Positions 5,775 through 63,080 of a DNA stretch of 64,000 bases are shown in pieces. The stretch comes from Gammaproteobacteria bacterium (GTDB lineage Bacteria > Pseudomonadota > Gammaproteobacteria > JAGOUN01): NCBI GenBank assembly GCA_046290385.1, contig JBKAGM010000004.1, positions 9,010-73,009 of the forward strand, written 5' to 3'. The position numbers were made by a program, and so were the translations under genes. Positions within the stretch are counted from its first letter, which is position 1; each line of letters opens with the position of its first letter. Below the pieces are notes generated by a model. The model saw only the letters and a list, made by a program, of their open reading frames with translations. It ran no database searches and was not told the DNA's origin.

Positions 5775-5977
5775 CTTGTTCTCCTGAATTATATTTCTCT
5801 CTATTTCCCAGACAGATTTCAAATGACAACCAACAGCAGAATGTTAGGTTTTAAAGGAAGAATTTAGAATTATTATTTTTGTTACTTCCGTTTATGTTTC
5901 CTATGATCGCTCATTTTAATGTCACTTGTAAGATCTCATTTACTATGGTAATTTACTGGGGTAATTTACATTTTTTT

Positions 5978-7312
5978 ATGGAAAAAATCATGGAAAAAGT
6001 TATTTTTCAACAAGTTACATGGGAATCTGTAGCCAAGCGTGTTCGCACCGTCAACCCAGAACTCCATAAAATTATTTGCGACTTAAGCCCAGATGATAGC
6101 TACCGTCTATATACTGGTGAGTATCCTTTTGGCTGTGAGTTTGTGAAAGAAGGAAGATTTCAATTGCCTACAAAAGGTGATGAATTAAGACCGCTCACGG
6201 ATCCAAACATTCCAAAACAAATCCAAGAAGATTTAAGTTATAACGAGGGTACCAATCCTGCGTGTTTACTCTTGAAAAATAGCATTGAAATTTATATGCT
6301 TTCATCTTTATTTCACGTTATTGGTTGGACTATTCCAGAAGGAGGCATTCTTGGAATCTCTCGCGTGTTAGCTGAAAATCCTCAGCATCCACCATTTCTT
6401 TGGAACATCAGCTCTGGAGCACGTTCTTTAATCATGTTGCCAAAAATATCTCGTGCTCGGAATCATCAGCGATTGCGTTCTGAACTAGGTATCAACATTG
6501 AAAAACCTGATTCGATATTTAAACACTGGGAAGTATTTAAAAGTATCGCAAACTGTGGAAAATTTAAACCTTGGTCTTCTAAAATATTATTTTTTTCTAA
6601 AAAATGGTTTGAACGTTTAAAAGATCCCGCGTTTCAAAGTTTTAGATGTTACTTATTAGAAAATAACAGAAAAAGATTTGACTATATCGGCAATATGTAC
6701 ATTTGGGAAATGGTCTTTAGTTTAATATTAAAAAATCGTGATATCAGACCAAGTCTATATACAAACAACTGCGCCAAATATCTTTTTCAGCTTGCAATGG
6801 GAATGACACCAGGATTAGCGCCAGCAGTCAATAATGTTTCTGCCCCTATCAAGATGTTACAAAAAGCATATATAGATATTTACGGGCTGAAAGACTACGT
6901 GCCAACTATTATGCAACCTAATTATTTCAACCCTTATGAACCCTGTGATTCAATATATCATTCTTTACAAACTCCAACATTTTTTGATACTCCTAAAAAG
7001 CGGGACAACAGCAGTTTGATATCCGACCTTTATGACATATATGCTCTATTTAATAAGTATATTTCATACATTAGAACAATGAAACTGAATATTGAAGGAA
7101 GCGCATTACATCAATCAGCACTTAACACACAAGTTGATGCATTACATCCAAGTCCAGAACGATATACCCCCATTAAATCATCTAAAACTATATTAGCAAA
7201 TGATAAAAGATTTAGTCAGTGTCTTTATCCAACAAAATATAATGAAGTTGCTATTAACAGCACCTTACTCAAAGGGTGCTTTCGGTTTTGTTATTATGAA
7301 AACAAAAAATGA
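5978..7312 (+). CDS. hypothetical protein (about 440 aa, no recognisable domain)
   Basis: Long ORF 5879..7312. The start is probably MEKIMEKV at about 5978-5990. No motifs identified by eye. Confidence 0.45.
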   Translation: MEKIMEKVIFQQVTWESVAKRVRTVNPELHKIICDLSPDDSYRLYTGEYPFGCEFVKEGRFQLPTKGDELRPLTDPNIPKQIQEDLSYNEGTNPACLLLKNSIEIYMLSSLFHVIGWTIPEGGILGISRVLAENPQHPPFLWNISSGARSLIMLPKISRARNHQRLRSELGINIEKPDSIFKHWEVFKSIANCGKFKPWSSKILFFSKKWFERLKDPAFQSFRCYLLENNRKRFDYIGNMYIWEMVFSLILKNRDIRPSLYTNNCAKYLFQLAMGMTPGLAPAVNNVSAPIKMLQKAYIDIYGLKDYVPTIMQPNYFNPYEPCDSIYHSLQTPTFFDTPKKRDNSSLISDLYDIYALFNKYISYIRTMKLNIEGSALHQSALNTQVDALHPSPERYTPIKSSKTILANDKRFSQCLYPTKYNEVAINSTLLKGCFRFCYYENKK

Positions 7313-9514: not shown

Positions 9515-10435
9515 TTATCCAAAAACCGCTTCCAAATTCTTTTGCATCTTAACGTATTTTTCGGATGACATTTTTTGAATATTTTTTATTTTCCAAGATA
9601 AAGCTGGGAAATTTTTCAAATCGAAATCCATAAACTCCCAATCAGGCTGGCTTGCATTAACAGATAATAAAAATTCTTTATCTTTTCTAGAAATTTTTGT
9701 TTTAACTAAATTTACCAATGTCTTTCTCGTGGTATCCAAATCATGATAAGTTATCTCCATATTCGTCATTCCTGAAAACTCCTTAGCATAAGTTTTCGAC
9801 AAATCTAAAAAATTAGGATTAAGCAACTCATGTATGGGTCTTCCGCCACACGCAATATAAACAACAATGGCGCTTAACAAATCGGTACTAACTCCTTCAT
9901 TCTCTAACAGTAATTTAACATCAAATAAATCTCTTGGATGTTGCCTATCGAGTGCTGCGCATATTTTTCCAGCATATAGATCCTCATGCGAAACCACAGG
10001 CATATCTAACACGCTTAATCCAAATAAATTTTCAGCAGAAGAGCATAGTCGTTTATACTCAACTGGAATTAAAACACCACGTACAACATCATTAACCTCA
10101 ATCTTAATTTGCACATGATTAGCGATGATAAATAATTTAATAGCTGTCTTATGGTGTCGATGCTCTTGTATAAGAACTCTTACATTCGGTATATATTTTT
10201 CGACATCATGTTTTATAAGAAAAAGTGATTTTTCAATATTTAGCATTGCCTCTTCTCTTGACTTTTTTTCTAGATATACTAAATCAATATCGACAGACAA
10301 TCGTGGCATTTCTCTAACAAATAAATTAATCGCTGTACCGCCTTTTAAAGCAAAACAAGACTGTTTCGCTACAAATGGCAAGACGCGCAATAGTAACCTG
10401 ACTTGTTGGTAATAATATTCTTCAAATTCATGCAT
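9515..10435 (-). CDS. AbiEii/AbiGii-family nucleotidyltransferase toxin (type IV TA / abortive infection)
   Basis: LKGGTAINLF...RLSVDIDLV (GGTAL NTase motif I) and KICAALDRQHPRDLFDV (RDLYD motif III). The ORF call 9515..10501 begins upstream. The start taken here is the ATG at 10435, which overlaps the upstream gene stop as ATGCATGA. Confidence 0.75.
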   Translation of the reverse strand: MHEFEEYYYQQVRLLLRVLPFVAKQSCFALKGGTAINLFVREMPRLSVDIDLVYLEKKSREEAMLNIEKSLFLIKHDVEKYIPNVRVLIQEHRHHKTAIKLFIIANHVQIKIEVNDVVRGVLIPVEYKRLCSSAENLFGLSVLDMPVVSHEDLYAGKICAALDRQHPRDLFDVKLLLENEGVSTDLLSAIVVYIACGGRPIHELLNPNFLDLSKTYAKEFSGMTNMEITYHDLDTTRKTLVNLVKTKISRKDKEFLLSVNASQPDWEFMDFDLKNFPALSWKIKNIQKMSSEKYVKMQKNLEAVFG

Positions 10436-11234
10436 GAGACTCATCCTTAAATACATCTTCCGGCAAAGATAATTCATGTTTTGGATAATAAACTCCTCCA
10501 CCTGAGATCACGCGCTTTCCTTTGCCAAAGTTTATTTTTTCTAAATTTAAATACTTAAACCAATTATGTCGCTCATGCTCTGAAAAAAGTAAAAATAAAC
10601 GTTTTACTTTGACAGAAGTGCAATGCTCTAATAAATATTGAAAAACGTCAGATCGACAAGAATGTAATCCCTCAAATAATAATTTTGTTTGAGATAATGA
10701 AATTTCCTCAGGAACTAATGCCAATGTTTCTAAGATGGCCCGCTCAACACATGACATCTTGACATGGTATTCGCCGATGGCATGTCCAATCAATGTGTCA
10801 GATAAATACGAAGAAAATAATTTTTTATGCGTCACATAAATAGATGCGTTTTTTGAAAACATTTTTTTAAACCACTTAGGTAAGGTCATACCAACCTGTG
10901 GATGTTGAAAAAGATATAATGGCTCCTTCGCCTGCATCGGCACAAAGTGAGCAAAACCCAAACGCTCTAATGCAGACCGACCTCCTATATGTATAGGTAG
11001 TTGTAAATGCTGTTGTAGTGCATATAACGCACCTTCTGGGCGTATTTCATCACCTTCTCTGGCATAAACACCAGGCGCCAAACGCATTAGCCAGTGGTGC
11101 TTCACATAACTATCAGCAAGTTGACGATAAATACCTTGTTGATTTAATGCGTTTTGCACGGCAATTGTTCCTTTTGGCCAGTGTTTTAATAGATAGTTTA
11201 ATTTTCCATTTTTTTGTCTACTCATACTTGTCAT
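10428..11234 (-). CDS. AbiEi-family antitoxin/transcriptional regulator (type IV TA system)
   Basis: 268 aa; an N-terminal AbiEi_4-like segment (GIYRQL...WLMRLAPGVYA) sits immediately upstream of the AbiEii gene, which is the canonical order. The two genes are translationally coupled. Confidence 0.6.
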   Translation of the reverse strand: MTSMSRQKNGKLNYLLKHWPKGTIAVQNALNQQGIYRQLADSYVKHHWLMRLAPGVYAREGDEIRPEGALYALQQHLQLPIHIGGRSALERLGFAHFVPMQAKEPLYLFQHPQVGMTLPKWFKKMFSKNASIYVTHKKLFSSYLSDTLIGHAIGEYHVKMSCVERAILETLALVPEEISLSQTKLLFEGLHSCRSDVFQYLLEHCTSVKVKRLFLLFSEHERHNWFKYLNLEKINFGKGKRVISGGGVYYPKHELSLPEDVFKDESHA

Positions 11235-11652: not shown

Positions 11653-13188
11653 ATGGCCAATGCATTTACAGAAACAGTCATCACACCTATCAAAGCCATG
11701 CGACTACGCTATGTGCCATTATTAATGATTTATTTTGCATATGGCGCTTCTGTCTTTTCAGGTATAGCTGAAAGCTTTTTTATTAAGGAACGTTTAAATC
11801 TACCCGCACACGCACTTATGATGATTGCTGTTTGGATAAGTATTCCTTGGTCGATAAAAATGGTCTTTGGTCAATTTGTCGATTCCGTGCCTTTTTTAAA
11901 ATCCACACGACGAAGTTATGTGTTTTTTGCTGCAGGCTTGATGGCAATCGGAAGTCTATTGATGGCGGGATTAGCAGGAGAATGGACGTGGATCCTGGCA
12001 ATGGGTTCAGCCAATGCTATATTCATCGTTGCGAGTTTAATTACTGTTTTTGGCGCCGTATTACAAGATGTCGTCGCAGATGCGATCTCTGTCGAAGTCG
12101 TCGATCGTGAAAACCGTAGTGAAGAAGAGATTCGTCATGAACTCGCAATGGTGCAATTATTAGGACGTTTGTCGTTAAGCATCGCTATTTTTTTAGTATC
12201 GGGTCTTGGTGGATGGCTCGCTCAAATTTATTCTTATCAAACAATATTTTTACTGACGCTCATTGTGCCAATCATCTCTGTGACTGGGGCTCTATTCATC
12301 CAAATTGATATCCCACAAATCAAACCCATTAATCGTAAGGTGTTTTTAGGTGGTCTCGCATATGCTGCTTTCGTGACAAGCATGGCTTTTTCACAATTCC
12401 CTGGGCATCAAGAAATTATTCTTGTTGTAAGCTTAATTATCGTGAGCATTTTATTATTCTCAATTTTAGGTGATGTCGATCATGACACACTGAAGAAAAT
12501 CCTTTTTGCAGCTCTCGTAATCTTTATCTATCGAGCTATGCCACCTGTAGGACCTGGATTACAATGGTGGGAAATTGATGTGCTTGGTTTTAATAAGGCT
12601 TTTTTCGGAACGCTTGCGCAAATAGGCTCAGGACTTGCCATTGCTGGAATGTGGTTTTTTGCGAAATGGCTAACAGAAAAGCCTATCGGGTGGATTCTAT
12701 TAATTTTAACACTTGTTAGTTTTATTTTAAGTTTACCTGTGATTGGCATGTATTACGGTTTACACGAGTGGACACAGGCAAATTTCGGATTTGGAGCACA
12801 TACTATTGCACTAGTGGACACTGCGCTCGCTTCACCTTTCGCACAAATGAGCATGGTGCCTATGTTAACGCTTATTGCTATCCATGCACCTCGCGGAAAC
12901 GCAGCAACGTGGTTTGCCTTGATGGCCTCACTCATGAATTTAGCACTCACGACAGGCAACTTAGTTAGCAAATGGTTAAATCATATCTGGGTAGTCACAC
13001 GTGAAGTTAAGGACTCCGCTGGAAATATTGTCACACAAGCAGATTACACGTCCTTAGGTCATTTATTATGGAGTACAACTCTTGTTGGTTTAATTCTTCC
13101 TCTGATCGCTACTTTTCTTTTTCTCCGGCAGGATGTTTTCTCGATTCGCCAACAAACTTCTACGACGACGCCAGCGAATAACAGTTGA
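11653..13188 (+). CDS. BT1/folate-biopterin transporter family MFS membrane protein
   Basis: 511 aa, about 12 TM. IPWSIKMVFGQFVDS matches the PWxIKPxxGxxSD motif of the FBT/BT1 family. Confidence 0.55.
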   Translation: MANAFTETVITPIKAMRLRYVPLLMIYFAYGASVFSGIAESFFIKERLNLPAHALMMIAVWISIPWSIKMVFGQFVDSVPFLKSTRRSYVFFAAGLMAIGSLLMAGLAGEWTWILAMGSANAIFIVASLITVFGAVLQDVVADAISVEVVDRENRSEEEIRHELAMVQLLGRLSLSIAIFLVSGLGGWLAQIYSYQTIFLLTLIVPIISVTGALFIQIDIPQIKPINRKVFLGGLAYAAFVTSMAFSQFPGHQEIILVVSLIIVSILLFSILGDVDHDTLKKILFAALVIFIYRAMPPVGPGLQWWEIDVLGFNKAFFGTLAQIGSGLAIAGMWFFAKWLTEKPIGWILLILTLVSFILSLPVIGMYYGLHEWTQANFGFGAHTIALVDTALASPFAQMSMVPMLTLIAIHAPRGNAATWFALMASLMNLALTTGNLVSKWLNHIWVVTREVKDSAGNIVTQADYTSLGHLLWSTTLVGLILPLIATFLFLRQDVFSIRQQTSTTTPANNS

Positions 13189-13653
13189 AAGATACCACAC
13201 TATTCTCACCAACACATACCCTAATGCACCAGAAATAGCACCTACAACAAAACAGCCTAACAAAAATGGCATGGCAATATTACTAAAATTATTTGAAAAC
13301 CAACCAATCGTACCATCAAACGGGGTTGGTTGAATCTCCAAAAGAAAGCTTCCCACCTTATAAGCAAAGTAAAATAATGGCGCCGCCGTCAGTGGATTCG
13401 TTAATAAGGAGACAATAAAAGTCAATGGCAGATTACTATTAAAAATAATAGCGCATATCGAAGAAAGAACAATCTGTGGCGGAATAGGAATAAACGCGCA
13501 AAATAGCCCAATACCTATCGCTCGAGACACAGAAGCGCGATTTAGACGCCACAAATTAGGCTGATGCAAAGCACGTCCAAAAAACTTCATAAAAGGTTTT
13601 TGATTTATGGACTTATGATCTGGCAAGTATTTTTTTAAAAACTTAATTAACAT
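13090..13653 (-). CDS. DUF2062-family membrane protein
   Basis: RAIGIGLFCAFIPIPPQIVLSSICAIIF resembles the DUF2062 core. The start is taken at the ATG overlapping the upstream stop (TAATG); the ORF call extends to 13728. Its 3' end overlaps the convergent BT1 gene by about 99 nt. Confidence 0.5.
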   Translation of the reverse strand: MLIKFLKKYLPDHKSINQKPFMKFFGRALHQPNLWRLNRASVSRAIGIGLFCAFIPIPPQIVLSSICAIIFNSNLPLTFIVSLLTNPLTAAPLFYFAYKVGSFLLEIQPTPFDGTIGWFSNNFSNIAMPFLLGCFVVGAISGALGYVLVRIVWYLSTVIRWRRRRSLLANRENILPEKKKSSDQRKN

Positions 13654-15002
13654 TAAATGATTTCCAAGCCTCGAAGAAAAATAAATAAAATAGCTAGCGG
13701 CGCTAAAATTCTTATCAGCCAATACCACGTACGAAATTTCAGTGTTTTGGAAGAAAATTTTAGTTCATGAGCAATCAAACTCTTGGTCATAAACCAACCC
13801 ACCAACAACGCCAACAAAAAACCACTAATTGGTAATAAAATGCTAGATGTCACAAAATCTAGTGCTTCAAAAAAATTCTTCCCAAACCATTTCTCTTGTG
13901 CCCAGATATTAAAAGATAAGATTGTGCCCGTGCTTAAGAATAAAATCACAACGCCACAAATAATAGCAGCATGCATTTTTTTTATATGTAATGTTTCTTT
14001 TAGCCAGACAACTGGTGCTTCTAAGAAACCTAAACATGAAGTAAAAGCAGCAAAACCTAGCATGACAAAAAAAAGCGTCGCAAAAAAAGTACCAGAAGGC
14101 ATATGGCTAAAGGATAAAGGCAGTGCTTCAAAAATTAAACCCGCACCTGCCGCTGGTGAAATCCCTTGAGCGAAAACAATGGGAAAAATGATCATTCCTG
14201 CACATAGCGCAATAGTAGTATCCAACAAACAAATTATCACAGACGTACGTGTAATCGAAATATTTTCAGGAAGATAAGCCCCGTACATCGCTACAACACC
14301 TAATGCGATACCTAAACTAAAAAAAGCCTGTCCTAAGGCAACTAAAACTGTCTTACCTGAAACGTGCTGTAACGATGGTTTAAACAAATAGGCCAAGGCA
14401 TGAGAAAATTGACCCGTATGTCCCGCATAAAATAACAACAACAGCAATAACATCACAAAGACTGGAAAAATGAAGACAACAGCACGTTCTAACCCTTTTT
14501 TTACGCCTGCGCCAACGACAATAACCATCCCAATAACAACACAAAAATTAAAAATAAACATTAATCCAGGATGCTGCATTAACGTTTGATAATATCCCCG
14601 GGATTGCGCTTCGGTGATATGTTCAAAATGTCCTGCTGCTGCCAAGTATATATATTCCAATAACCAACCACTGATAACACTGTAGTACGACAAGATGAGA
14701 AAACCGGTTAATATGCCTAGAGCACCTGCACAATACCATAGAGGTCGCATCGGCTTTTTTGAGGCAAATGCGAATGATTTTGCAGGATTATGCCGACCAT
14801 ATCGTCCAACTAAGACTTCACCCATCATTAAAGGAATACCAAGCACTATGACACAAAGTAGATAAAAAAAGACAAAAGTACCGCCTCCATTGGTACCTGT
14901 GATATATGGAAATCGCCAAATATTACCAAGACCAACAGCAGCGCTACCAGCTGCCATAATATAACTTAGTTGAGATTTCCACTGTGGTTTCGTTCGTTCC
15001 AT
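13653..15002 (-). CDS. neurotransmitter:sodium symporter (NSS/SNF) family Na+-dependent transporter
   Basis: GLGNIWRFPY NSS signature near the N-terminus; 449 aa, about 12 TM. Confidence 0.85.
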   Translation of the reverse strand: MERTKPQWKSQLSYIMAAGSAAVGLGNIWRFPYITGTNGGGTFVFFYLLCVIVLGIPLMMGEVLVGRYGRHNPAKSFAFASKKPMRPLWYCAGALGILTGFLILSYYSVISGWLLEYIYLAAAGHFEHITEAQSRGYYQTLMQHPGLMFIFNFCVVIGMVIVVGAGVKKGLERAVVFIFPVFVMLLLLLLFYAGHTGQFSHALAYLFKPSLQHVSGKTVLVALGQAFFSLGIALGVVAMYGAYLPENISITRTSVIICLLDTTIALCAGMIIFPIVFAQGISPAAGAGLIFEALPLSFSHMPSGTFFATLFFVMLGFAAFTSCLGFLEAPVVWLKETLHIKKMHAAIICGVVILFLSTGTILSFNIWAQEKWFGKNFFEALDFVTSSILLPISGFLLALLVGWFMTKSLIAHELKFSSKTLKFRTWYWLIRILAPLAILFIFLRGLEII

Positions 15003-15014
15003 GATCGTCTATTT

Positions 15015-16412
15015 TTAAATATCCCTTTTTAGTCTAACCCCATGATAAATATAAAACAATATAACAGGTGCGATCATAATGACAATGCCACTAGTAAACG
15101 CGATAATGTAATGCATATGTCCACCAACATCTATGGAATCTGGAGGGAAAAATCCAACAATAAGTGTGACAACACAACCGAACAAACCTAACAAACCAAC
15201 CACACATGTTCCAAATTTCCCAAATGGTATAGCAAATGGGCGTTCTTGATCAGGATATTTAAACCGCAGACGAATCGCGCTAACGAACATTAAGAGATAC
15301 ATCAGCATGTATAACTGCGTGCTCAAGTCTGTAAGCAGCCAATATGATGCATTCACCGTTGGCATAAACAAAAAGGCAACACAAATTAAACTCACTAACA
15401 AAGCTTGTATAATAAGGACGTGGGCTGCGACACCATAACTATTTTCTTTGGCAAAATAGTCTGGCATGAAATGATATTTCGCCGCACGTAACAAACCTTT
15501 AGCTGGCGAAATAACCCAGTTAATCATTTCCCCAAAGCTACCTATTAATATCATTATCATTAAAACAGGTAATAAAAATTTCAAATGATATCCAGAGAAA
15601 AACACCCCAAAGGCTTGCATTACACCATCAACGATATTAATTTGATCACGAGGAATAACTATTGCAATAGCGAAAGCGCCCATAATCATGGTGATCAAAA
15701 TAATTAACACAGAATAGAACATTGCCTTTGGAAATGTTTTTTGAGGATTCTCAACCTGCCTTACATGAACGGTTGCCAACTCCATTCCTAAGAATGCTGT
15801 CATAATAGCCGTCAATGAAATCCAGCTTTCCGAATGGCCCATTTTTGGCAGTAATGTATCTAGTTGAAAATGTAAATGTATAGGTTTTCCCATGACTAAC
15901 CACGTCATTGAGAACCCAATAATCAGCAGAACGGGAATAATAAACCCTAAGACACAGCAAATACTGGCAAAGCGTGCCGAAGTCTTTATGCCATACAAAT
16001 TAATGATGGTGATAGCCCAAAATGAAATCAAAATGATGGACACTAGATAAACTCTATTCTCTACCAACGCAGGATCTATCAAAAAGGCAATAGTCCCTGC
16101 AATAAACGATAATATAGTAGGAAACCATACCATCGTATTGATCCACTGCAACCATATTGCTAAAAATCCCACCTTATTGCCAAAGGCCATACGCGTCCAA
16201 TCAAACACGCCGCCGTATTCTGTCCATGCAGAAGAAAGTTCTGCTGAGATAAGCGCAGCGGGAATAAGAAAAACAACCGATGCAAAAATAAAAAAGAAAA
16301 TTAATGTGTCGCCAAACAACGCCGTCGCCGGCAAATTACGAATACTATCGATGGAGACAACGATTAACATCACCAACGCGAATGTAGAGATTTTTTTGGT
16401 AGCAGTTGTCAT
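15015..16412 (-). CDS. APC-superfamily amino acid permease
   Basis: 465 aa, 12 TM, typical APC permease layout. Confidence 0.75.
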   Translation of the reverse strand: MTTATKKISTFALVMLIVVSIDSIRNLPATALFGDTLIFFFIFASVVFLIPAALISAELSSAWTEYGGVFDWTRMAFGNKVGFLAIWLQWINTMVWFPTILSFIAGTIAFLIDPALVENRVYLVSIILISFWAITIINLYGIKTSARFASICCVLGFIIPVLLIIGFSMTWLVMGKPIHLHFQLDTLLPKMGHSESWISLTAIMTAFLGMELATVHVRQVENPQKTFPKAMFYSVLIILITMIMGAFAIAIVIPRDQINIVDGVMQAFGVFFSGYHLKFLLPVLMIMILIGSFGEMINWVISPAKGLLRAAKYHFMPDYFAKENSYGVAAHVLIIQALLVSLICVAFLFMPTVNASYWLLTDLSTQLYMLMYLLMFVSAIRLRFKYPDQERPFAIPFGKFGTCVVGLLGLFGCVVTLIVGFFPPDSIDVGGHMHYIIAFTSGIVIMIAPVILFYIYHGVRLKRDI

Positions 16413-17581
16413 TCCCTTTCCTTTTTCATTGACGGCTTTTTAGGACTGTATGCAAAAGCTGGACTTTGCATAGCATAAAAACGCCGATATTCCTCGCCGA
16501 GCGGTCCCGACAAAAATGCTTGGCTGTTAACTAATTGTATAATACCTTTCGTTGTTAAATCTACATGATACGTATTACGAAAATCATACTCTAGCTGCCA
16601 ATGAGCCGCACTTCCTTTATGCAAAGGCAAATAATATACGCGAAAATCCTCAAGCACACCCGTAACCGGTTCGTAATCGTAAACTTTTATTCCTGGATTA
16701 TTTCTTACAACGGGACTAATTGATGGCGATGTAAATACAACTGATTGATGATTGTTTGGAAGTGATAAAATTGAAAATCCATCGGTATGCACGTGGCCAG
16801 CAAAAAGAGCCTGGATGTTATTTCTATGTTTTTCAATAATACGGAAAAATTCGCGCAAATAATCCTTTTGCCAAAACGTCTCTTTAATTGAGTATTTCGC
16901 ACGTTTGTATTCATTGATTGTTGGCGGAATATGCATAGCAACCCACGCAACTCGATGCAACTTTTTTGCTTCATCAAGAACTTCATTCAACCATTGCAAT
17001 TGGGCCTTTGCGTCTGTTACATGTTGCCTACGATCTGGATCTCTTATGCTAAATAAATTGGCATTCAGCGTGATTAATCTAATATTTGAATTTGGCAAGT
17101 CTCTGTAATAATATCCTGCGTGTTTAAAAGTTTCTATACTATCATGATCAAGAACATGATGTTTTATTTTTGCAGCATTTGATAAAAAATCACCATCAAC
17201 AACTGTCAATGTATTGCCGCCGTAATTATCATGATTACCCATAGTGATATAAATTGGCGTCTCCGGAAAAATGTTTTGAACCGAATTTATTAGTGATTTT
17301 AAAAGGTCATTTATGTAGGCTTTCGATTGATGAATGCCATGAGGATAATAATCACCCAATAATAAAATTTCACTTGGATGTAACTCTCCAGAAGTTTTTA
17401 AATGCCTTAACTCATTTAGTGTCGATTGCCATAAAAAGTTATTTGTTTCATAACGGTATCCTGGATAATGTTTTTCTAGATTAAGCGCATCATAATGAAT
17501 ATCTGTTAACGTTAATAATTGTGAGGCAGAAAATACTTGCGAAAAACAGAAAAAGCATATTATAAATATTATTTTTTTCAT
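16409..17581 (-). CDS. secreted calcineurin-like metallophosphoesterase, acid-sphingomyelinase-like phosphodiesterase type
   Basis: Signal peptide MKKIIFIICFFCFSQVFSAS. Metallophosphoesterase motifs DIHYD, GDYYPHG, GNHDNYG, HIPP and GHVHTDGF, the last resembling the GHTHxDEF of the ASM/SMPDL3 family. Confidence 0.65.
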   Translation of the reverse strand: MKKIIFIICFFCFSQVFSASQLLTLTDIHYDALNLEKHYPGYRYETNNFLWQSTLNELRHLKTSGELHPSEILLLGDYYPHGIHQSKAYINDLLKSLINSVQNIFPETPIYITMGNHDNYGGNTLTVVDGDFLSNAAKIKHHVLDHDSIETFKHAGYYYRDLPNSNIRLITLNANLFSIRDPDRRQHVTDAKAQLQWLNEVLDEAKKLHRVAWVAMHIPPTINEYKRAKYSIKETFWQKDYLREFFRIIEKHRNNIQALFAGHVHTDGFSILSLPNNHQSVVFTSPSISPVVRNNPGIKVYDYEPVTGVLEDFRVYYLPLHKGSAAHWQLEYDFRNTYHVDLTTKGIIQLVNSQAFLSGPLGEEYRRFYAMQSPAFAYSPKKPSMKKERE

Positions 17582-18711
17582 AAAATTTTAAACTCTATGG
17601 TTTCTTCAACATGCTTACGCAAGTATTCAATAAAAGGCGTTCCGCCAGTACCAACGCCAGTAGGATTAGCATCGGATGCTTGACTTTGTTTATGGATATA
17701 CTCGATAGCATAACTTAAATGCGTTTTTCGGAATCTTGCCAAAAGATCAATACAATCATTATAAATTTTTTTTAGCTTCAAATCTCCAGAAAGCACTTGT
17801 TCTCGTACATTCGTATTTTTTTCCACATACTCTAGTAACATTCGATGATTCTTTGGCATGTAACCACGCATTTCCTGCAAATATTTTTGCAACATATCTT
17901 TCTTATGCTCGATACCCAATAGCGCATCACACATAGGAATGATAGTACTTTGCGCGCCAGTTTCACCACGAAATTTTTGAGGCTTCCCTTGATATTCTTC
18001 AACTCCCTCATAAATTAAGCCTTCGGGTAATACGGGATTATTCAACCAACCATGAATATAAGGACGAACACGTTGATAATAAATATATGGGTCACAACGC
18101 TCGGGTATACGATCGAGCGCTTCACAAATAGCGTTAAGGGCGTTTACTATTGGTTGAAGTGCCTCTCCTAATCCTATTTTATTTTCAACAATGATCAATA
18201 CATTCTTTACCAAAGCTTCGGCTTTAGCTTCGATATCGACATGCACCAAAACAAACCATTCCTCATCCTGTCCACCTAAAAAATTTTGCAATAATGCGAT
18301 GTTGCCTAATTCAATTGGTCCTTGTGGGTTTAAGCGCATCCAATTATAAAGTGCGTAAGATGCATAAGATAACACAGGGGGACGCTCTAAATATTTCGCT
18401 ACTTGATACCAAGGCTGTGCTAACACTTTAGGTAGTACATCAACAGCCGGATTTTCACCCCAAACATATGCGTGCCCCAAATACGACAAAATTAGCATTG
18501 CGCGTTGATAATGAGATTTATCATTTAATTGATTAATAGGAAATTCTGGTAACGATTTTATCTTGTTACGTAAAGTCGTGCTCATTAACCATTTTGGTAA
18601 TGTGCGCGCAATATCTTCCCAGGGTTGAAAAATAGAAGGAAGTATTGGAATTGGATCTTGTTTTGGTAGGAATCCACGTGTTAATTCTTCGAATGCCATA
18701 TTGAGCTCCAT
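17578..18711 (-). CDS. indoleamine 2,3-dioxygenase (IDO) family haem dioxygenase homologue
   Basis: Collinear blocks match human IDO1: AYVWGE, PPVLSYASYALYNW, GLIYEG...GETGAQS (vs GGSAGQSS), YLQEMRGYMPKNHR (vs FLQDMRRYMPPAHR), VREQVL, a conserved proximal His in RFRKTHLSYAIEYI, and GTGGT near the C-terminus. Confidence 0.8.
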   Translation of the reverse strand: MELNMAFEELTRGFLPKQDPIPILPSIFQPWEDIARTLPKWLMSTTLRNKIKSLPEFPINQLNDKSHYQRAMLILSYLGHAYVWGENPAVDVLPKVLAQPWYQVAKYLERPPVLSYASYALYNWMRLNPQGPIELGNIALLQNFLGGQDEEWFVLVHVDIEAKAEALVKNVLIIVENKIGLGEALQPIVNALNAICEALDRIPERCDPYIYYQRVRPYIHGWLNNPVLPEGLIYEGVEEYQGKPQKFRGETGAQSTIIPMCDALLGIEHKKDMLQKYLQEMRGYMPKNHRMLLEYVEKNTNVREQVLSGDLKLKKIYNDCIDLLARFRKTHLSYAIEYIHKQSQASDANPTGVGTGGTPFIEYLRKHVEETIEFKIL

Positions 18712-18756: not shown

Positions 18757-19275
18757 ATGCCCACAGAAATTACGATTAGCCAATCCGTTGCCATACTCGT
18801 CGATGGAAACAACTTAGAACGCAGTATTCATGATGAATGTGGTGATGAAAGTGCCATGCTAAATTTCGACACACTCATTCCAAAATTGCTCGATAATCGA
18901 TCGCTCAATCGCCTAGTATATTTCCGTGAAGGAAAACACATTTCATCCAAACTTGCTGAGCGTCTACATCAAAATTATCACGGCTCCGTCAGGCCTTGTC
19001 ACAAAAGCGCGGATATTCCATTAACTATTAAAGCCATGCAACTGTCGAGCAAAGTAGACACCATCATCATCATGTCCGGTGATTCCGATTATATTGAATT
19101 AGTGCGGCACTTAAAATCTGAGGGCGTACGTGTCGAAATCGCAGCGGTTGCGGCAACAACTTCAAATCTTCTGCTTAAAGACGCGGATTTTTTTCACAAA
19201 ATCACTTCGGAAGATTGGTTTACGTTACAACCAAAACACAAAACAACTCGACGCAAACGTTCTAGTTCAAATTAA
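18757..19275 (+). CDS. NYN/LabA-like domain protein (predicted RNase-fold protein)
   Basis: ILVDGNNL...MSGDSDY...G motif pattern of NYN/DUF88 domains. Confidence 0.6.
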   Translation: MPTEITISQSVAILVDGNNLERSIHDECGDESAMLNFDTLIPKLLDNRSLNRLVYFREGKHISSKLAERLHQNYHGSVRPCHKSADIPLTIKAMQLSSKVDTIIIMSGDSDYIELVRHLKSEGVRVEIAAVAATTSNLLLKDADFFHKITSEDWFTLQPKHKTTRRKRSSSN

Positions 19276-19451: not shown

Positions 19452-20072
19452 ATGGCCACTATTACTAAAGAACTTGATAAAATCATTAAAAAACAACCGG
19501 TTAACCGCCCGAGTCGTGAAGAGGCAAAAGCGGCCGTAAGAACATTGCTTGCCTACGTCGGCGATGATCCTAATCGTGAAGGTCTACTGGATACTCCCAA
19601 ACGCGTAATCGACGCTTACAGTGAATTATTCAAGGGTTATGACGAAGACCCTGAAGCAATTTTAAGCCGCACATTCGAAGAAATTCATAATTACGACGAG
19701 ATGGTGCTGCTCAAAAATATGCGTCTAGAATCGCATTGTGAGCACCACATGCTGCCGATTATCGGCGTGGCTCATGTGGCCTACATGCCTAGAAAACGCA
19801 TTGTGGGTATTAGCAAATTGGCACGTCTGGTAGACACATTCTCAAAACGCTTACAAACTCAGGAAATTATGACAGCTCAAATCGCCGATACAATTCAAAG
19901 CGTGCTTGATCCTATCGGTGTAGCAGTCGTTATTGAGGCTGACCATCAATGCATGACGATGCGCGGCGTTCACAAACATGAAACAACGACGGTAACGAGT
20001 CGAATGCTAGGCTTGTTCCGAGAAAACGCTAAAACACGTATGGAATTTTTGACGCTTATTGGTAAGGGTTAA
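19452..20072 (+). CDS. folE: GTP cyclohydrolase I
   Basis: [18 protein letters not shown] catalytic region; 206 aa. Confidence 0.9.
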
Positions 20073-20073
20073 A

Positions 20074-20484
20074 TTAGTTCTCTCTAAACTCTTTTTCCTT
20101 AATTTCCATAAACGTTTTGCTATCGACAGAAAAGCGCGCGGTCGGGCGTAGCAACAATCGTTCTATGCCGATCGGCTCACCTGTTTCCTCACAATAGCCA
20201 TAGTTTTCTTCACTAATTTGTTTCAAGGAATAACGTATTTTAGGAAGTAACTTCGTTTCACGTTCGATAATACGCAGTTTAATCATACGCTCTTCTTCAC
20301 GAGATGCTAAATCAACTTCATCAGCGGGTTCATTCGACAGCTCGCTCAATTCTTTGCGTACAACATCGATGTGTGCCATTGTTTCTTTTTCTAGCTCAAG
20401 CAATAGCGTCTTAAAGAACTCCAGTTGTTCTTTATTCATATATTTGCTCTTTGGCATTCTTTTTAATTTGGATATTGTTAACAT
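20074..20484 (-). CDS. DksA/TraR-family RNA-polymerase-binding regulator, cysteine-free variant
   Basis: Coiled-coil tip ADEVDLAS (DxxDxA) and a C-terminal ...IGIERLLLRPTARFSVDSK aligning to the DksA zinc ribbon, with the four Cys replaced. Confidence 0.65.
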   Translation of the reverse strand: MLTISKLKRMPKSKYMNKEQLEFFKTLLLELEKETMAHIDVVRKELSELSNEPADEVDLASREEERMIKLRIIERETKLLPKIRYSLKQISEENYGYCEETGEPIGIERLLLRPTARFSVDSKTFMEIKEKEFREN

Positions 20485-37690: not shown

Positions 37691-39016
37691 TCATAAACTT
37701 TCAAATTGCTCCTTGGACAATAATCCATTTACCAGCACAGGATAATGTTCCCTGATATAACCACGAAAAACACTCCGAACAATGCTATGTTCTAATCCAT
37801 TACGATGATATAAGTTCAACATCATTTGATTGTTCTTCTCTTCTAAACTTGAAATAAAACTCCTTTCCATAACTCGCTTTTCTGTATCTGGTAATAATCG
37901 ATATGCTTTCTCTATAAAATCGACAACATAATGCTGATAACGATTCTTTAATGCTTCATCATGCTTTCGTTTCTGTTGAAGCTTCAACATCTCTTTTTCT
38001 TTTTCAAGATATTGTGACTCTAAATGCTGTCGGCTCGATTTCGCTTGATAATCACCGCGTAATGCACTTAGAAAATAAGCCGCGAGATTATTGATTTCTC
38101 CCTTCTTAAAGCTTGATGATTGCTCAACAAATGAAATTTTTTCAGCAATACGCTCTTCTCCAAAGTCATTAAGAAGATCAGCAGCCTGTGTCTTGGTAAA
38201 ACCAAAGGTTTTGAGTTTTGCAATATATGCTATTTGATCTTCAGTGAGTGCGTAGCTCTCCAATTCAGTTTGTCCTATACGATTACGTTTTTCTCGAGCA
38301 CTGAGTTTAAATCGAATTTGTTTAACTTGTCGGCGCTCTTTTTTAATTTCGGGTTCAACAATCAAATCTGAAAACGCATTTACCTCCTCTATTGATTTGT
38401 CGAGAACACGTCTTTTGAAATCTCTAAAAATATCGTATTTACCGGAAGGCACTCCCATTAATTTGCGAAAAACATCGAGTTCAAACCATTTCGTTGACGA
38501 CAACCCTTTGTAGCGAACACAATTTTCATAAAGTGCGAGTCCATAACTAGATTTAAATTTAGACTGAATGATGAGATTAATTTTACCGTATACGGAAGGC
38601 GAGTAAAGCAACTCTTTCATTCTTGGACTATACGCATAATAGCAATTAGGCCCTTTTATGCTTACGCTGGCAATAATTGTACTTGCTGTCCAATCTTCTT
38701 CAGAACAATTATCATTGACTACGTTCCATTCAACAATCGTTGATACAAGCCCACGTAATGCATCTTTTATGACGCCGTGATTATTTCCTCTATACCCAAT
38801 AATCTGACATAATTCCCGGATGGTTATTTGATGCTCTTCAACGTTTTTCAATTCTGGGTAGGCATGGAACAGCAGCGCATTATTAATTTTGCGTTGTAGC
38901 AAAGTCAACATGCCAGAACTATGTATCGCAGCAGTATGTTTTTTTAACTCACCGTTCTTGCGTGCGATCTGGCCTTGCTTACTTTGTGTTGATTTTATCA
39001 TTCCTTGATCCTGCAT
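37691..39016 (-). CDS. iteron-type plasmid replication initiator protein (Rep_3-like)
   Basis: 441 aa. The N-terminal region resembles Rep_3 initiators, and the gene lies immediately downstream of five iterons. The C-terminus is a Lys/Glu-rich coiled region. Confidence 0.55.
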   Translation of the reverse strand: MQDQGMIKSTQSKQGQIARKNGELKKHTAAIHSSGMLTLLQRKINNALLFHAYPELKNVEEHQITIRELCQIIGYRGNNHGVIKDALRGLVSTIVEWNVVNDNCSEEDWTASTIIASVSIKGPNCYYAYSPRMKELLYSPSVYGKINLIIQSKFKSSYGLALYENCVRYKGLSSTKWFELDVFRKLMGVPSGKYDIFRDFKRRVLDKSIEEVNAFSDLIVEPEIKKERRQVKQIRFKLSAREKRNRIGQTELESYALTEDQIAYIAKLKTFGFTKTQAADLLNDFGEERIAEKISFVEQSSSFKKGEINNLAAYFLSALRGDYQAKSSRQHLESQYLEKEKEMLKLQQKRKHDEALKNRYQHYVVDFIEKAYRLLPDTEKRVMERSFISSLEEKNNQMMLNLYHRNGLEHSIVRSVFRGYIREHYPVLVNGLLSKEQFESL

Positions 39017-39305: not shown

Positions 39306-40178
39306 TTGTGTCATATGAAAGTTATTGCTGCAGTAAGTAATAAGGGAGGCGTTGGAAAAACAAAACTCAGCGCATTATTAACAGAATATTTAGCGAAGTA
39401 TACAAAGAAAAAAGTTTTAGCTATCGATTTTGATCCGCAATGTAATTTTTCTTTGCGTTACTTGCCTATGGAGATGGATCCAGCAGCCCCGGAAGGTTTA
39501 ATGCCACCTATTCATCCCGATTACAACCCAGACGAAGATGAAGAGTGGGATGGCCGCAGCAGTATTGCAGATATTTTCTTTGGACAAGGTGTTGTTCCAT
39601 ATCCAACTTTTATCAAAAATGTAGATATTGCGCCTGGACATGCTGAACGTTTGTTAGCCGCAGAAATGGTGCGCAGAAGTGAAGTTGCTGAAAGAATTCA
39701 CAGGCAGCTTAAAATATTTTTAAATTCCCCAGATTTGCAAGAAGCGTATGATGTCGTTATTGTGGACACCGCTCCTTCAAAAGGACCATTGACTGTAAGC
39801 GTAATTAAGGCGGCCACCGATATTGTTATTCCTTCAGTAATGGAAGAACAACCTATTCAGGGGATATACGGTATGTTACAACTTTGGATGCAGGAATCAT
39901 TTAATCGAAAATCCGATAACCCATTGAATTTAGTAGGAATATTGCCAAACATGTTTAAAAACACAACGCTACATCGCGATATGTATGAGTCGTTGTTGAG
40001 TAATGAGGGTATTGGTAAGTATATGATGCCAATGAAAATAAGCCAGCGGATTGTATATGCTGAAATTGATTCAGAGGATGCAAGCCCAAGAACGATTTTT
40101 GATTTACCTGATAATCACATTGCGAAACGTGAAGCGGTAACTGTTTGTGAATACATCATGAAGGAGGTGTTTGGATGA
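39306..40178 (+). CDS. parA: ParA/Soj-family partition ATPase (plasmid type)
   Basis: Deviant Walker A KGGVGKT; the start is probably MKVIAAV at 39318; insertion-bearing relative to chromosomal Soj. Confidence 0.85.
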   Translation: MCHMKVIAAVSNKGGVGKTKLSALLTEYLAKYTKKKVLAIDFDPQCNFSLRYLPMEMDPAAPEGLMPPIHPDYNPDEDEEWDGRSSIADIFFGQGVVPYPTFIKNVDIAPGHAERLLAAEMVRRSEVAERIHRQLKIFLNSPDLQEAYDVVIVDTAPSKGPLTVSVIKAATDIVIPSVMEEQPIQGIYGMLQLWMQESFNRKSDNPLNLVGILPNMFKNTTLHRDMYESLLSNEGIGKYMMPMKISQRIVYAEIDSEDASPRTIFDLPDNHIAKREAVTVCEYIMKEVFG

Positions 40179-41194
40179 GTAAGAAAAAACGTTTTGGAAT
40201 TTCCCAAGCAATGGGACGAGGGCTGACGGATACCGTTAATCTGGTTGAACGTAATCCTGGAAAATTTAGAAGCGGCATGATTCCGATGTCGCGCATTGAG
40301 ACAGATCCTGACAACCCAAGGCAACTATCATTAAATATTCATGATATTCAGCAGGGCCTTAATAAAAATGATCCGGATTATGAGCGCAAACGAACAGAAT
40401 TTGAAATGTTAGAGGAGCTTGCCGAGACCATTAGAAAAAGTGGCATCATTAATCCTATTGTTGTATATAAGCGCGATCAAAATTATCGAATTGTTGCTGG
40501 TGAAAGGCGTTTCTTAGCTTCAATGATTGCCGGAAAAACAGAGATTGATGCCAGAATTTATAATGAAAAACCAATTGGATTAGACTTAAAGTTAGTGCAA
40601 TGGTATGAAAATACTGCAAGGGCAGACTTGTCATTACATGAGCGTGTGCAGAATGTAGAGGAGCTTATCAAGGCCTATGTTAAACGTTTTTCAGATCAAT
40701 CTATTAATGACGCGAAAGATTTAAAAGAACTCGTTGGGCTTTCACTAAACCAAGCACGCTATTACCTTAACGTCATAAAAGCTCCAGAAGATGTAAAGAA
40801 CGCAATCGCGAATGGACAAATCAATAGCCTGGACAAGGCGGCTGCCATAGCGAATGTGGGATCAAATGATATTCGCACGAAAGCATTATTCGCTTGTCTC
40901 AATGGTGCTTCTTTGAAAGACATTCGGGCAGTTATTGCTAGAGAGAAGGAAAATCAATCAAGTTTAGCCACATCGCTCAAGTCTGAGTCTCGTGGACGAG
41001 CACCCCAATATATTCAGTTGGGAAAAACGAAACACTTCGCGGTAGTGAGGGAGATTATTGAGGCAGTTTTGCGCGATGCAAAATATTCACATCATTCTAA
41101 GGCTTTTGCCAATGCTGAATGGGATGATTATGCTAATGTCAGCACGACATTCAAAGAATTTCTTAAGATAGTAGAATTAGAGACAATGGAGTAA
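40175..41194 (+). CDS. parB: ParB/RepB/Spo0J-family partition protein (plasmid type)
   Basis: ParB N-domain PIVVYKRDQNYRIVAGERRFLAS; the start overlaps the parA stop by 4 nt. Confidence 0.8.
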   Translation: MSKKKRFGISQAMGRGLTDTVNLVERNPGKFRSGMIPMSRIETDPDNPRQLSLNIHDIQQGLNKNDPDYERKRTEFEMLEELAETIRKSGIINPIVVYKRDQNYRIVAGERRFLASMIAGKTEIDARIYNEKPIGLDLKLVQWYENTARADLSLHERVQNVEELIKAYVKRFSDQSINDAKDLKELVGLSLNQARYYLNVIKAPEDVKNAIANGQINSLDKAAAIANVGSNDIRTKALFACLNGASLKDIRAVIAREKENQSSLATSLKSESRGRAPQYIQLGKTKHFAVVREIIEAVLRDAKYSHHSKAFANAEWDDYANVSTTFKEFLKIVELETME

Positions 41195-41720: not shown

Positions 41721-42524
41721 TTATTTTCCTTTATCTTCGACATTGGCCGTGAAACCCATTTTAGAGAATACGCCATCAAGGATGTCGATATTGTGAAAGT
41801 GGATTTTAATCATACCATCGCCCTCATCGAATTCGATATCCGTTTTACAACCTATATGATCAGAAAAAGCTTTTTCCAAGTTTTTAATATCAGGGTCTTT
41901 TTTGGTGATTAGTTTTTGTTTTGCAGTTTGTATTTTCTTTATTTCTTGTTCGATTTTACGAACACTCCATCCTCGGGCAATGGCTCGTTTTGCTAAGTCT
42001 ATCTGTTGTTTATGTGCGAGCACGGCGAGTACTTTGCCGTGACCTTCGCTTAGTCGGCCCTCAATAATGAGCTCTTGTACGGAATTATCGAGTTTTAAGA
42101 GTCTTAATGAGTTGGTAATTTTAACGCGTGATTTACCTACGGCTGCAGCGACCTCGTCATGGGAGTAATCGAATTCATTGATTAATCGCTGATATGCATT
42201 GGCCACTTCAATAGGGTTTAAATCCACTCGATTGATATTCTCAATCATGGCCGCCTCAGCCGCTTGTTCATCACTATAGTGTTTAATAATGCAGTTAATA
42301 GTATCTATGCCAGCTCGTTGAGAGGCACGCCAGCGTCGCTCACCAGCAATAATTTCATAATGACCGCCCTTTATAGGTCTGACGACGATAGGTTGTAATA
42401 AACCTGCTGATTTAATAGAGGCCGCTAGCTCTTCTAGAGCTTCTTGATCAAATTCGTAACGTGGTTGATAACGGCCACGTTGAATTTGATCAATAGGGAT
42501 TTGACGTAAGTCTAGTTTTGTCAT
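41721..42524 (-). CDS. parB: chromosomal-type ParB/Spo0J partition protein (orphan, no adjacent soj)
   Basis: Canonical Spo0J motifs: GERRWRASQ, IENINRVDLNPIEVA, a SLRLLKL HTH, and LSEGHGKVL. Confidence 0.85.
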   Translation of the reverse strand: MTKLDLRQIPIDQIQRGRYQPRYEFDQEALEELAASIKSAGLLQPIVVRPIKGGHYEIIAGERRWRASQRAGIDTINCIIKHYSDEQAAEAAMIENINRVDLNPIEVANAYQRLINEFDYSHDEVAAAVGKSRVKITNSLRLLKLDNSVQELIIEGRLSEGHGKVLAVLAHKQQIDLAKRAIARGWSVRKIEQEIKKIQTAKQKLITKKDPDIKNLEKAFSDHIGCKTDIEFDEGDGMIKIHFHNIDILDGVFSKMGFTANVEDKGK

Positions 42525-62904: not shown

Positions 62905-63080
62905 TGTTTATTATTGGGTGATAGTGAGATTTTCTCTTACTATCATCCACTTAAAATTTTTTTAAAAAAACCTCTTCACATTTCAATAATTTTTGTCTAG
63001 AATACTCAAATACCGCAAGGGGCGGTATGACATCTCTTCTAGGAGATGTACCGAGACAAGGATCAGTCGGAGGTGCTATA

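Follow-up and report, generated by a model that had tools for sequence, protein, structure and literature searches.

The window analyzed here is a 64-kb stretch of contig JBKAGM010000004.1 (assembly GCA_046290385.1), which belongs to a gammaproteobacterial metagenome-assembled genome (MAG). An open reading frame (ORF) at 16409-17581 encodes a two-metal phosphodiesterase that is a member of the ASM/SMPDL3 family (acid sphingomyelinase and its relatives; MPP_ASMase) by sequence and fold. The family is already known in bacteria from LegS1 of Legionella pneumophila and RsASML of Ralstonia solanacearum (PMC4256840, PMC4140839); the window protein adds a new and strongly divergent member to it. Taken as a whole, the evidence makes it fairly probable that the gene encodes a minimal, exported ASM-like phosphodiesterase acting on nucleotides or other small phosphodiesters, and that it shares an operon with a homolog of indoleamine 2,3-dioxygenase (IDO) through common regulation. 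The gene and its parts are located as follows:

16409..17581, minus strand: coding sequence of the ASM-like (SMPDL3-type) phosphodiesterase, 390 amino acids plus stop, ATG start (ORF list, Pfam, PDB, Foldseek)
17522..17581, minus strand: predicted Sec signal peptide (signal peptidase I, SPase I), MKKIIFIICFFCFSQVFSAS, codons 1-20 (hydropathy, -3/-1 rule)
16583..17521, minus strand: calcineurin-like catalytic domain, codons 21-333 (invariant columns, alignment to SMPDL3A/B)
16475..16582, minus strand: shortened helical ASM-type C-terminal domain, codons 334-369 (Pfam ASMase_C, DSSP, alignment)
16412..16474, minus strand: lysine-rich hydrophilic tail, codons 370-390 (…SPKKPSMKKERE; low pLDDT, sequence)

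Assignment to the ASM/SMPDL3 family

The match to SMPDL3 and ASM proteins is beyond chance in the comparisons of sequence and of structure. The protein matched Pfam Metallophos with an E-value of 3.9e-11, and the significant matches of a phmmer search against the PDB were limited to SMPDL3B (6e-32), SMPDL3A (9e-29), and ASM (2e-16), with no further family below an E-value of 0.1; the best Foldseek match of the predicted structure reached 5e-32. The phmmer alignments extended to query residues 341-369, that with SMPDL3A to residue 369. The Pfam profile of the C-terminal domain (ASMase_C) matched at positions 19-94 of 143 with 22.3 bits (E-value 1.5e-4), which just misses the cut-off of 23.7. 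The identical protein in the NCBI MAG is annotated as 'metallophosphoesterase [Gammaproteobacteria bacterium]'.

The active-site motifs of the 390-residue protein are DIHYD (D27-x-H29), GDYYPH (G76-D77-x3-H81), GNHD (G115-N116-H117-D118), MHIPP (H217), and GHVHTDGF (G262-H263-x-H265-x-D267). They supply the complete set of seven metal ligands (D27, H29, D77, N116, H217, H263, and H265), the counterparts of which in human ASM are D206, H208, D278, N318, H425, H457, and H459 (PMC5062611). Together with H81, these residues occupy invariant or nearly invariant columns in three independent family alignments, and the column of H81 contains histidine in 263 of 263 aligned residues. In mouse ASM, His280 and Asp249 form the pair that donates a proton to the leaving group, and His317 takes part in substrate binding (PMC4961792). 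By correspondence with the ASM structures (PMC4961792, PMC5062611), H81 and E45 are the predicted leaving-group pair and H117 is the predicted substrate-binding histidine; E45, in the partner position of H81, is a conservative replacement of the aspartate found in at least 90% of the homologs.

An earlier sequence-only reading of the window had proposed an ASM/SMPDL3-type enzyme with a full dimetal motif set for this ORF. The ORF was borne out, every residue of the motif set was recovered, and both the PDB sequence matches and the 18 best Foldseek matches were SMPDL3 or ASM proteins throughout. The same reading had treated the string GHVHTDGF as a mark of the family; it led to the right family, but the string itself carries no weight as evidence, since GHxH is generic to metallophosphoesterases. 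The assignment stands because of the similarity over the whole protein. The suggested comparison with hidden Markov models (HMMs) of Metallophos and the ASM C-terminal domain gave the scores reported above.

An ordinary bacterial phosphoesterase of the CpdA/YfcE type, SpdA, GpdQ, Rv0805, or LpxH was considered and rejected. The NCBIfam scores were low (30.1 bits vs a cut-off of 400 for SpdA; 20.2 vs 148 for the acc_ester model), and the structures of such enzymes are distant, with TMq values of 0.30-0.45 between the model and GpdQ, Rv0805, and LpxH. A pattern of exclusively ordinary bacterial matches, combined with a missing ASM-type C-terminus, would have pointed to such an enzyme; the check returned SMPDL3 and ASM matches and a recognizable C-terminal region.

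Predicted structure and C-terminal region

The AlphaFold2 model of the protein, which was built from an alignment of 70 sequences, has a pLDDT of 91.9 and a pTM of 0.91. When it was compared with the PDB using Foldseek, the 18 best matches were all structures of SMPDL3B, SMPDL3A, or ASM (E-values 5e-32 to 3e-25), with TM-scores of about 0.8 over approximately 390 columns (TMq 0.75-0.81, TMt 0.75-0.78). The next tier comprised GpdQ, Lmo2642, purple acid phosphatase, Rv0805, and LpxH, with E-values of 1e-10 or weaker and TMq values of at most 0.5.

The closest matches in both sequence and structure are SMPDL3A and SMPDL3B (PDB 5FC1, 5EBB, and 8W6P; 5KAR and 9K2E). They share with the window protein all seven ligands and the histidines of the GDxxxH and GNH motifs, but sequence identity is only about 23-29%, and the window protein is shorter by approximately 40-60 residues. 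Two elements of SMPDL3A/B are missing from it: the cysteine-bearing loop that separates motifs I and II, and the final C-terminal helix together with its cysteine pair. SMPDL3B is anchored by glycosylphosphatidylinositol (GPI), whereas the window protein has no hydrophobic C-terminal signal. Moreover, the eukaryotic enzymes are rich in disulfides, whereas the mature part of the window protein is free of cysteines; the only two cysteines among its 390 residues are located in the leader.

The C-terminal region expected from the sequence-only reading was found, albeit in shortened form. It is covered by the PDB alignments (up to residue 369) and by the approximately 390 columns of the Foldseek superposition, and DSSP assigned helices to residues 334-338, 344-352, 354-358, and 360-369 of the model. 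The alignment revealed that this domain lacks the last helix and the cysteine pair of longer homologs. Beyond it, pLDDT drops to 47 in the final block of the model. A hydropathy scan with a 10-residue window found no hydrophobic GPI-type or transmembrane anchor at the C-terminus, which is hydrophilic (…AYSPKKPSMKKERE).

ASM itself (SMPD1) agrees with the window protein in catalytic fold and in the residues of the active site (Foldseek E-value 1e-27, TMq 0.79), but its phmmer match (2e-16) is far weaker than those of SMPDL3A/B. ASM is defined by a saposin domain and a proline-rich linker that enable lipid hydrolysis (PMC5062611), and the window protein lacks both: the Pfam scan detected no saposin family, there is no proline linker, and motif I, at residue 27, is located right behind the leader.

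Signal peptide and export

The N-terminus, which reads MKK-IIFIICFFCF-SQVFSAS, has the features of a Sec leader. The n-region MKK is followed by an h-region (I4-F13) with a mean Kyte-Doolittle hydropathy of 3.42, whereas the maximum elsewhere is 1.27 (10-residue window, beyond residue 25). Small residues at positions -3 and -1 make VFS|A and SAS|Q the candidate sites of cleavage. In the AlphaFold2 model, residues 1-20 are of low confidence and include a helix (3-13) with low pLDDT; the first strand begins at residue 20 (20-26). According to the family alignments, nearly all homologs have an equivalent N-terminal hydrophobic segment. The cleavable signal peptide claimed in the sequence-only reading is therefore supported, as a predicted Sec/SPase I type that was called by inspection of hydropathy and the -3/-1 rule. 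Export as a lipoprotein was rejected, since the leader has no lipobox, and so was export via the twin-arginine translocation (Tat) pathway, since the leader has no twin-arginine (RR) motif.

The Sec pathway would export the protein, signal peptidase I would cleave it near residues 18-20, and the mature protein would fold in the periplasm without disulfides. By analogy with LegS1 of L. pneumophila, further release through type II secretion may occur; LegS1 has a signal peptide and is 26.8-fold more abundant in supernatants of the wild type than in those of a type II secretion mutant (PMC12239567). There is no type II or type IV secretion gene among the annotated genes of the window.

Probable substrates and mechanism

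In the structures of ASM, seven residues bind two metals, and a metal-bound water attacks the phosphorus (PMC4961792, PMC5062611). In the window protein, two divalent metals would likewise activate a water molecule for the attack on a phosphodiester or phosphoanhydride bond, with H81 as the putative proton donor for the leaving group. The likeliest substrates would be extracytoplasmic nucleotides and small phosphodiesters, such as ATP and ADP (yielding AMP), nucleotide-diphosphate alcohols, and possibly cyclic dinucleotides, and the role of the enzyme would be the scavenging of nutrients or the clearance of extracellular nucleotide signals.

Such substrates are favored for three reasons. Firstly, RsASML (RSp1609), which is the only biochemically characterized bacterial member of the family, converts ATP and ADP to AMP but does not cleave sphingomyelin and other phosphocholine lipids; it works at neutral pH and prefers Ni or Mn (PMC4140839). 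Secondly, SMPDL3A and SMPDL3B have been reported to hydrolyze cyclic GMP-AMP (cGAMP) (PMC13157387). Thirdly, hydrolysis of lipids by ASM requires the saposin domain, which presents the lipid (PMC5062611) and is absent here. Like the window protein, RsASML has the catalytic domain and homology in the C-terminal domain but no saposin domain; however, it retains the C-terminal cysteine pair and its expression depends on disulfides (PMC4140839), neither of which applies to the window protein (RsASML was compared by its published description). Since the window protein has no saposin domain, no anchor, and no cysteines past the leader, we infer by analogy with its characterized relatives that it is a soluble periplasmic or secreted hydrolase of nucleotides or small phosphodiesters.

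The sequence-only reading had envisaged a secreted enzyme that modifies either host lipids or nucleotides. Of these alternatives, the nucleotide is favored; the lipid is less likely, given the missing saposin domain and anchor and the inactivity of RsASML on sphingomyelin. A phosphodiesterase that attacks lipids (sphingomyelin, in the manner of sphingomyelinase C, or lysophospholipids and other host lipids) and is secreted against eukaryotic membranes, e.g., those of a diatom or protist, would agree with the membership in the ASM family and the retention of H117, whose counterpart in ASM, His317, is essential when liposomes are the substrate but hardly so with bis-pNPP (PMC4961792). Moreover, reviews treat the homolog of L. 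pneumophila as a mimic of sphingomyelinase (PMC6712060). We nevertheless regard a lipid substrate as unlikely: the window protein is devoid of saposin domain, proline linker, and anchor, RsASML cleaves neither sphingomyelin nor other phosphocholine lipids (PMC4140839), sequence homology to ASM has been explicitly shown not to predict the substrate, and LegS1 has yet to be shown to act as a sphingomyelinase.

Distribution of the family among bacteria

When 1.84 billion cluster representatives (50% identity; 15 billion proteins) were searched exhaustively with HMMER at an E-value of ≤1e-3, 2670 of them proved to be related to the window protein. Apart from the protein itself, the closest relative is about 39% identical, which makes the window protein a singleton. 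The members fall among relatives of Desulfovibrio, Verrucomicrobiota, Acidobacteriota, Bacteroidota, and other MAGs; those named include Solidesulfovibrio (a relative of Desulfovibrio), Terrimicrobiaceae, Candidatus Tyrphobacter, Candidatus Cybelea, Candidatus Sulfotelmatobacter, Chitinophagaceae, and others. Four loci of homologs are plainly bacterial: one with genes for LexA and polymerase IV, one with gidAB-parAB (homolog P0048 of our alignment), one with uvrD and a tyrosyl-tRNA synthetase gene, and a fourth with pilBCD-coaE-zapD-yacG … secA-lpxC-ftsZ. ASM-like homologs have previously been noted in Legionella longbeachae, Fluoribacter, Geobacter, Desulfovibrio, and Ralstonia (PMC4140839). 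The term 'eukaryote-like', used in the sequence-only reading and applied to LegS1 in the literature (PMC4256840, PMC6712060), is thus appropriate as a historical label of the family, but the implied rarity in bacteria is not, given the 2670 representatives, many of them in bacterial settings.

The highest raw scores were obtained with a large bacterial clade (e.g., P0002, P0010, and P0036) that shares 34-39% identity with the window protein (≤161 bits); a scan of the genome collection with P0010, a protein of Gammaproteobacteria bacterium SCGC AG-212-F23, found that genome alone. Like the window protein, the members of this clade have a signal peptide and the metal ligands and are encoded by stand-alone bacterial genes. 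By contrast, GN is followed by asparagine in these proteins (GNND), about 24 residues are inserted after motif I and about 13 after GDxxxH, and the C-terminus is extended and has a cysteine pair; none of this is found in the window protein.

In a family alignment of 272 sequences (P0001-P0175 and P0296-P0390 among them), the residue after GN, i.e., the column of residue 117, is asparagine in 234 and histidine in only 10 sequences. The carriers of the histidine include SMPDL3A/B of animals, Heterostelium album, the bacterial homolog P0048, and P0118. Judging from this alignment, most of the sampled, largely bacterial family lacks a counterpart of ASM His317, the residue needed for lipid hydrolysis (PMC4961792). 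The distinction between GNND and GNHD may mark a systematic difference in substrate between clades.

The isolation of the window protein, a singleton on a very long branch, would also fit a decaying or inactive relic, i.e., a pseudoenzyme that is kept merely by its position within the operon. Other features that point in this direction are the curtailed C-terminal domain, the loss of every disulfide cysteine, and the change from aspartate to glutamate in the position of the catalytic partner. Such a relic is highly improbable, as all metal ligands and both catalytic histidines are kept, the reading frame is uninterrupted, the AlphaFold2 model is confident, and short C-termini occur also in other bacterial members (P0048 and P0108).

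Origin of the protein

Two features of the window protein resemble the eukaryotic members of the family: the presence of H117, the equivalent of mouse ASM His317, and the absence of the two insertions of the bacterial clade. In a neighbor-joining tree with 100 bootstraps, it is placed next to a clade of Trichomonas vaginalis, Tritrichomonas foetus, Heterostelium, mammalian SMPDL3A/B, and unnamed metagenomic sequences, with a bootstrap value of 58/100. In a contest of profiles, it scored 238.8 bits with the HMM of the eukaryotic clade, 274.5 bits with that of its nearest bacterial relatives, and 227-248 bits with random bacterial sets, whereas genuine members of either clade have preferences of 50-300 bits; the outcome is neutral to slightly bacterial. 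In addition, the insertions are absent also from other bacterial sub-clades, and P0048, which has a GNHD motif, is encoded in a bona fide bacterial locus.

The phylogeny suggested in the sequence-only reading therefore places the protein beside the protist/animal clade, but it does not demonstrate a eukaryotic origin, which was rejected as an established conclusion on account of the bootstrap value and the lack of support from the profile contest. Recent horizontal transfer was rejected as well, since the GC content at third codon positions (GC3) of the gene (0.269) is native for the window (carB, 0.287; serA, 0.274; an RND pump, within 0.26-0.29; housekeeping genes, 0.26-0.31). The protein represents a deep, isolated lineage; a eukaryotic source is possible.

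Operon with an IDO homolog

The gene of the ASM-like protein is the second of five same-strand genes in a tight cluster. The other members, in the order of transcription, are:

17578..18711, minus strand: IDO homolog, upstream gene (ORF of 377 amino acids; Pfam IDO)
15015..16412, minus strand: APC-superfamily amino-acid antiporter (GadC/TyrP-like), downstream gene (Pfam AA_permease_2, 2.9e-70)
13653..15002, minus strand: sodium-dependent transporter of the NSS/SNF family, 12 bp past the APC gene (Pfam SNF, 3.7e-44)
13090..13653, minus strand: DUF2062 membrane protein, 187 amino acids, last in the cluster, directly after the NSS/SNF gene (Pfam DUF2062; called in the identical contig of Logan assembly SRR22269038 and from the ORF list)

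The IDO homolog, for which the NCBI annotation gives 373 amino acids from an ATG at 18699 preceded by GGAG, matched the Pfam family IDO over its full length (1.1e-96, profile positions 10-410 of 412) and IDO2/IDO1 in the PDB at 3e-56 to 1e-52. The histidine of its motif FRKTHLSY aligned to that of LRSYHITM in IDO2, which we take to be the proximal heme ligand. Its 7568 homologs include bacterial MAG proteins with 55-61% identity as the closest relatives. The product of the APC gene scored 418 bits with the NCBIfam model of the Gln/GABA antiporter and 298 bits with that of TyrP, both below the equivalog cut-offs; the NSS/SNF gene passed the cut-off of the Na_transp model (113 vs 50 bits).

The stop codon of the IDO homolog overlaps the start of the ASM-like gene by 4 bp (ATGA, 17578-17581), and the stop codon of the latter overlaps the start of the APC gene in the same manner (ATGA, 16409-16412), with a purine-rich stretch, AAGGAAAGGGA, before it. 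A scan for promoters and terminators found no signal in the cluster beyond shuffled expectation, neither a leader nor a riboswitch precedes the IDO gene (upstream gap of 45 bp), and the window gave no match in Rfam and tRNA scans. The co-transcription with IDO noted in the sequence-only reading is consistent with this tightly packed operon, with its ATGA overlap at the junction and no internal terminator signal; the ASM-like gene would be translated from one transcript with the genes of IDO, the APC antiporter, the NSS transporter, and the DUF2062 protein.

Linkage with IDO in other genomes

The pairing was not recovered elsewhere: an ASM-like gene was present in none of five other loci of IDO homologs, and an IDO gene in none of four ASM-like loci. 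These loci thus gave no sign of a conserved module of both genes; of the linkage with IDO noted in the sequence-only reading, the operon itself stands, but the sampled loci offer no evidence of a conserved functional pair. The neighborhoods of the five IDO homologs all differ, comprising an outer-membrane factor with MacB, an RRM protein with a DEAD helicase, an ABC-2 exporter, OmpA with Fic, and a locus of a gammaproteobacterial MAG (L007, 6001-8750 in GCA_033763845.1). At this last locus, genes of saccharopine dehydrogenase, aldehyde dehydrogenase, and acyl-CoA dehydrogenase come before the IDO homolog, and an APC-type permease comes after it. Its permease is only 22% identical to that of the window and is not the same gene; the adjacency of IDO and a permease may have arisen twice.

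The pairing of IDO and the ASM-like gene is probably old, because the genes overlap on both sides and are equal in composition. Most likely, it reflects shared regulation in a cluster for the uptake and catabolism of tryptophan or other aromatic amino acids, not a shared pathway; the two proteins are in different compartments, since the phosphodiesterase has a leader and IDO has none. A functional coupling with IDO might take the form of an extracytoplasmic pyrophosphatase of NAD or other nucleotides that supplies the salvage of pyridine nucleotides, with IDO initiating the synthesis of NAD from tryptophan, or of a joint immunomodulatory pair. The overlaps on both sides, the equal composition across the operon, and the two amino-acid transporters encoded in it would agree with such a coupling. 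So would the fact that the kynurenine pathway, of which IDO is the first enzyme, leads to NAD, and that SMPDL3A accepts nucleotide-diphosphate derivatives. The separate compartments, the absence of the pairing from all five IDO loci and all four ASM-like loci, and the lack of any other kynurenine-pathway gene among those seen in the window make it very unlikely. A search of the literature on the biology of bacterial IDO and on the nucleotide-binding residues of SMPDL3A returned nothing usable.

A more far-reaching combination would be a host-directed module in a Coxiella- or Legionella-like bacterium associated with the diatom, in which a protist-derived, cysteine-free SMPDL3 enzyme, encoded in an operon with IDO and two transporters, removes signals such as ATP or cyclic dinucleotides while tryptophan is consumed. 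The sister clade with its bootstrap value of 58/100, the rare histidine of the GNH motif, and the missing insertions allow acquisition from a protist but do not favor it, and the profile contest, the native codon composition, and the uniqueness of the pairing among the sampled loci argue against it. We consider this combination improbable, and somewhat more so than a lipid substrate.

Several observations concern the surroundings of the operon. A gene with a NYN domain (predicted RNase; 18757-19275, plus strand) is divergent from IDO, with 45 bp between the start codons, and the best sigma-70-like match in the gap points toward the NYN gene. The operon is flanked by a gene of the BT1 folate/biopterin-transporter family (11653-13188, plus strand) and by the gene of GTP cyclohydrolase I (FolE; 19452-20072, plus strand). 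The 3' end of the BT1 gene overlaps the 3' end of the convergent DUF2062 gene by about 99 bp, and an AbiEi/AbiEii toxin-antitoxin pair (9515-11234, minus strand) adjoins the BT1 gene; AbiEii fragments occur also near the IDO homolog of another locus (L008).

The organism and the remainder of the window

The gammaproteobacterial MAG was obtained from a diatom culture, and its contig is present also in the Logan assembly SRR22269038. The window has a GC content of 37.5% and contains the housekeeping genes bioBFA, carAB, pyrB, serA, lexA, a clpB-like gene, cydAB, and pdxH. A cluster of replication and partitioning genes comprises Rep3 (37691-39016, minus strand), ParA (39306-40178, plus strand), a ParB-like protein (40175-41194, plus strand), and ParB (41721-42524, minus strand); it coincides with a change of sign in GC skew at about 40 kb, and carAB, pyrB, serA, and lexA are located on both sides of it. 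Among plasmid proteins, Rep3 is most similar to the Rep protein of Coxiella burnetii plasmid QpH1 (43.8% identity, 96% of the query covered), which does no more than hint at a lineage resembling Coxiellales or Legionellales. The region may be an integrated plasmid or else the origin of a chromid or of a large plasmid that carries core genes. Three large ORFs (5879-7312, plus strand; 47606-49594 and 52902-54950, both minus strand) encode proteins of 477, 662, and 682 amino acids, for which a Pfam scan at an E-value of ≤1e-3 found no family; they are candidates for lineage-specific or effector-like proteins. Two paralogs of the DksA family (20074-20484, minus strand; 62993-63514, plus strand) are no more than 43 kb apart.

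These features bear on the alternative that the ASM-like protein is an effector of the LegS1 type, delivered to a eukaryotic host by the Dot/Icm-like type IVB system of an intracellular bacterium related to Legionellales or Coxiellales. LegS1 (lpg2588) resembles the window protein in being an ASM-like phosphoesterase with a signal peptide from a low-GC gammaproteobacterium, and it is one of 24 Dot/Icm substrates conserved in five Legionella species (PMC4256840). The low GC content of the window, the similarity of Rep3 to a Coxiella protein, the three large ORFs without Pfam family, and the presence of a eukaryote in the sample would fit this scenario. However, LegS1 is conserved across Legionella as a listed Dot/Icm substrate and has a different genomic context, whereas the window protein stands alone as a singleton, its closest relatives reaching only about 39% identity; its likeness to LegS1 is drawn from the description of the latter in the literature. 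Moreover, the 64 kb of the window are free of type IV secretion genes, the NCBI record classifies the source organism no finer than 'Gammaproteobacteria bacterium', and the N-terminal Sec leader indicates a periplasmic location or type II secretion. Delivery as an effector is therefore quite unlikely, even more so than the host-directed module of protist ancestry.

Strength of the combined reading

Several points weigh against the reading as a minimal, exported phosphodiesterase of nucleotides or small phosphodiesters that owes its place in the operon to shared regulation. The predicted leader was called by eye rather than with a trained predictor. The C-terminal domain, which in ASM braces the metal-binding histidines, is cut down, and activity could differ accordingly; in addition, E45 occupies a position where the aspartate partner of the catalytic histidine is nearly invariant. 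SMPDL3B works on membranes and LegS1 is a listed Dot/Icm substrate, which leaves room for lipid substrates and delivery to host cells. Finally, the five IDO loci sampled are a small selection out of thousands.

Implications for the ASM/SMPDL3 family

The current understanding of the family is not altered by the window protein: earlier work has already documented the family itself, its members in bacteria, and the secretion of these, and the likely activity on nucleotides has been published. If active, however, the protein would rank as the smallest of the known ASM-like phosphodiesterases without disulfides and offer a handy scaffold for work on the active site of ASM/SMPDL3 enzymes, since the glycosylated and disulfide-rich eukaryotic proteins are hard to produce. 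It would also provide a data point on the substrate class, lipids or nucleotides, of LegS1 and other bacterial ASM-like proteins, and the occurrence of the eukaryote-type GNH histidine in a bacterial setting bears on how frequently the family has been exchanged between protists and bacteria.

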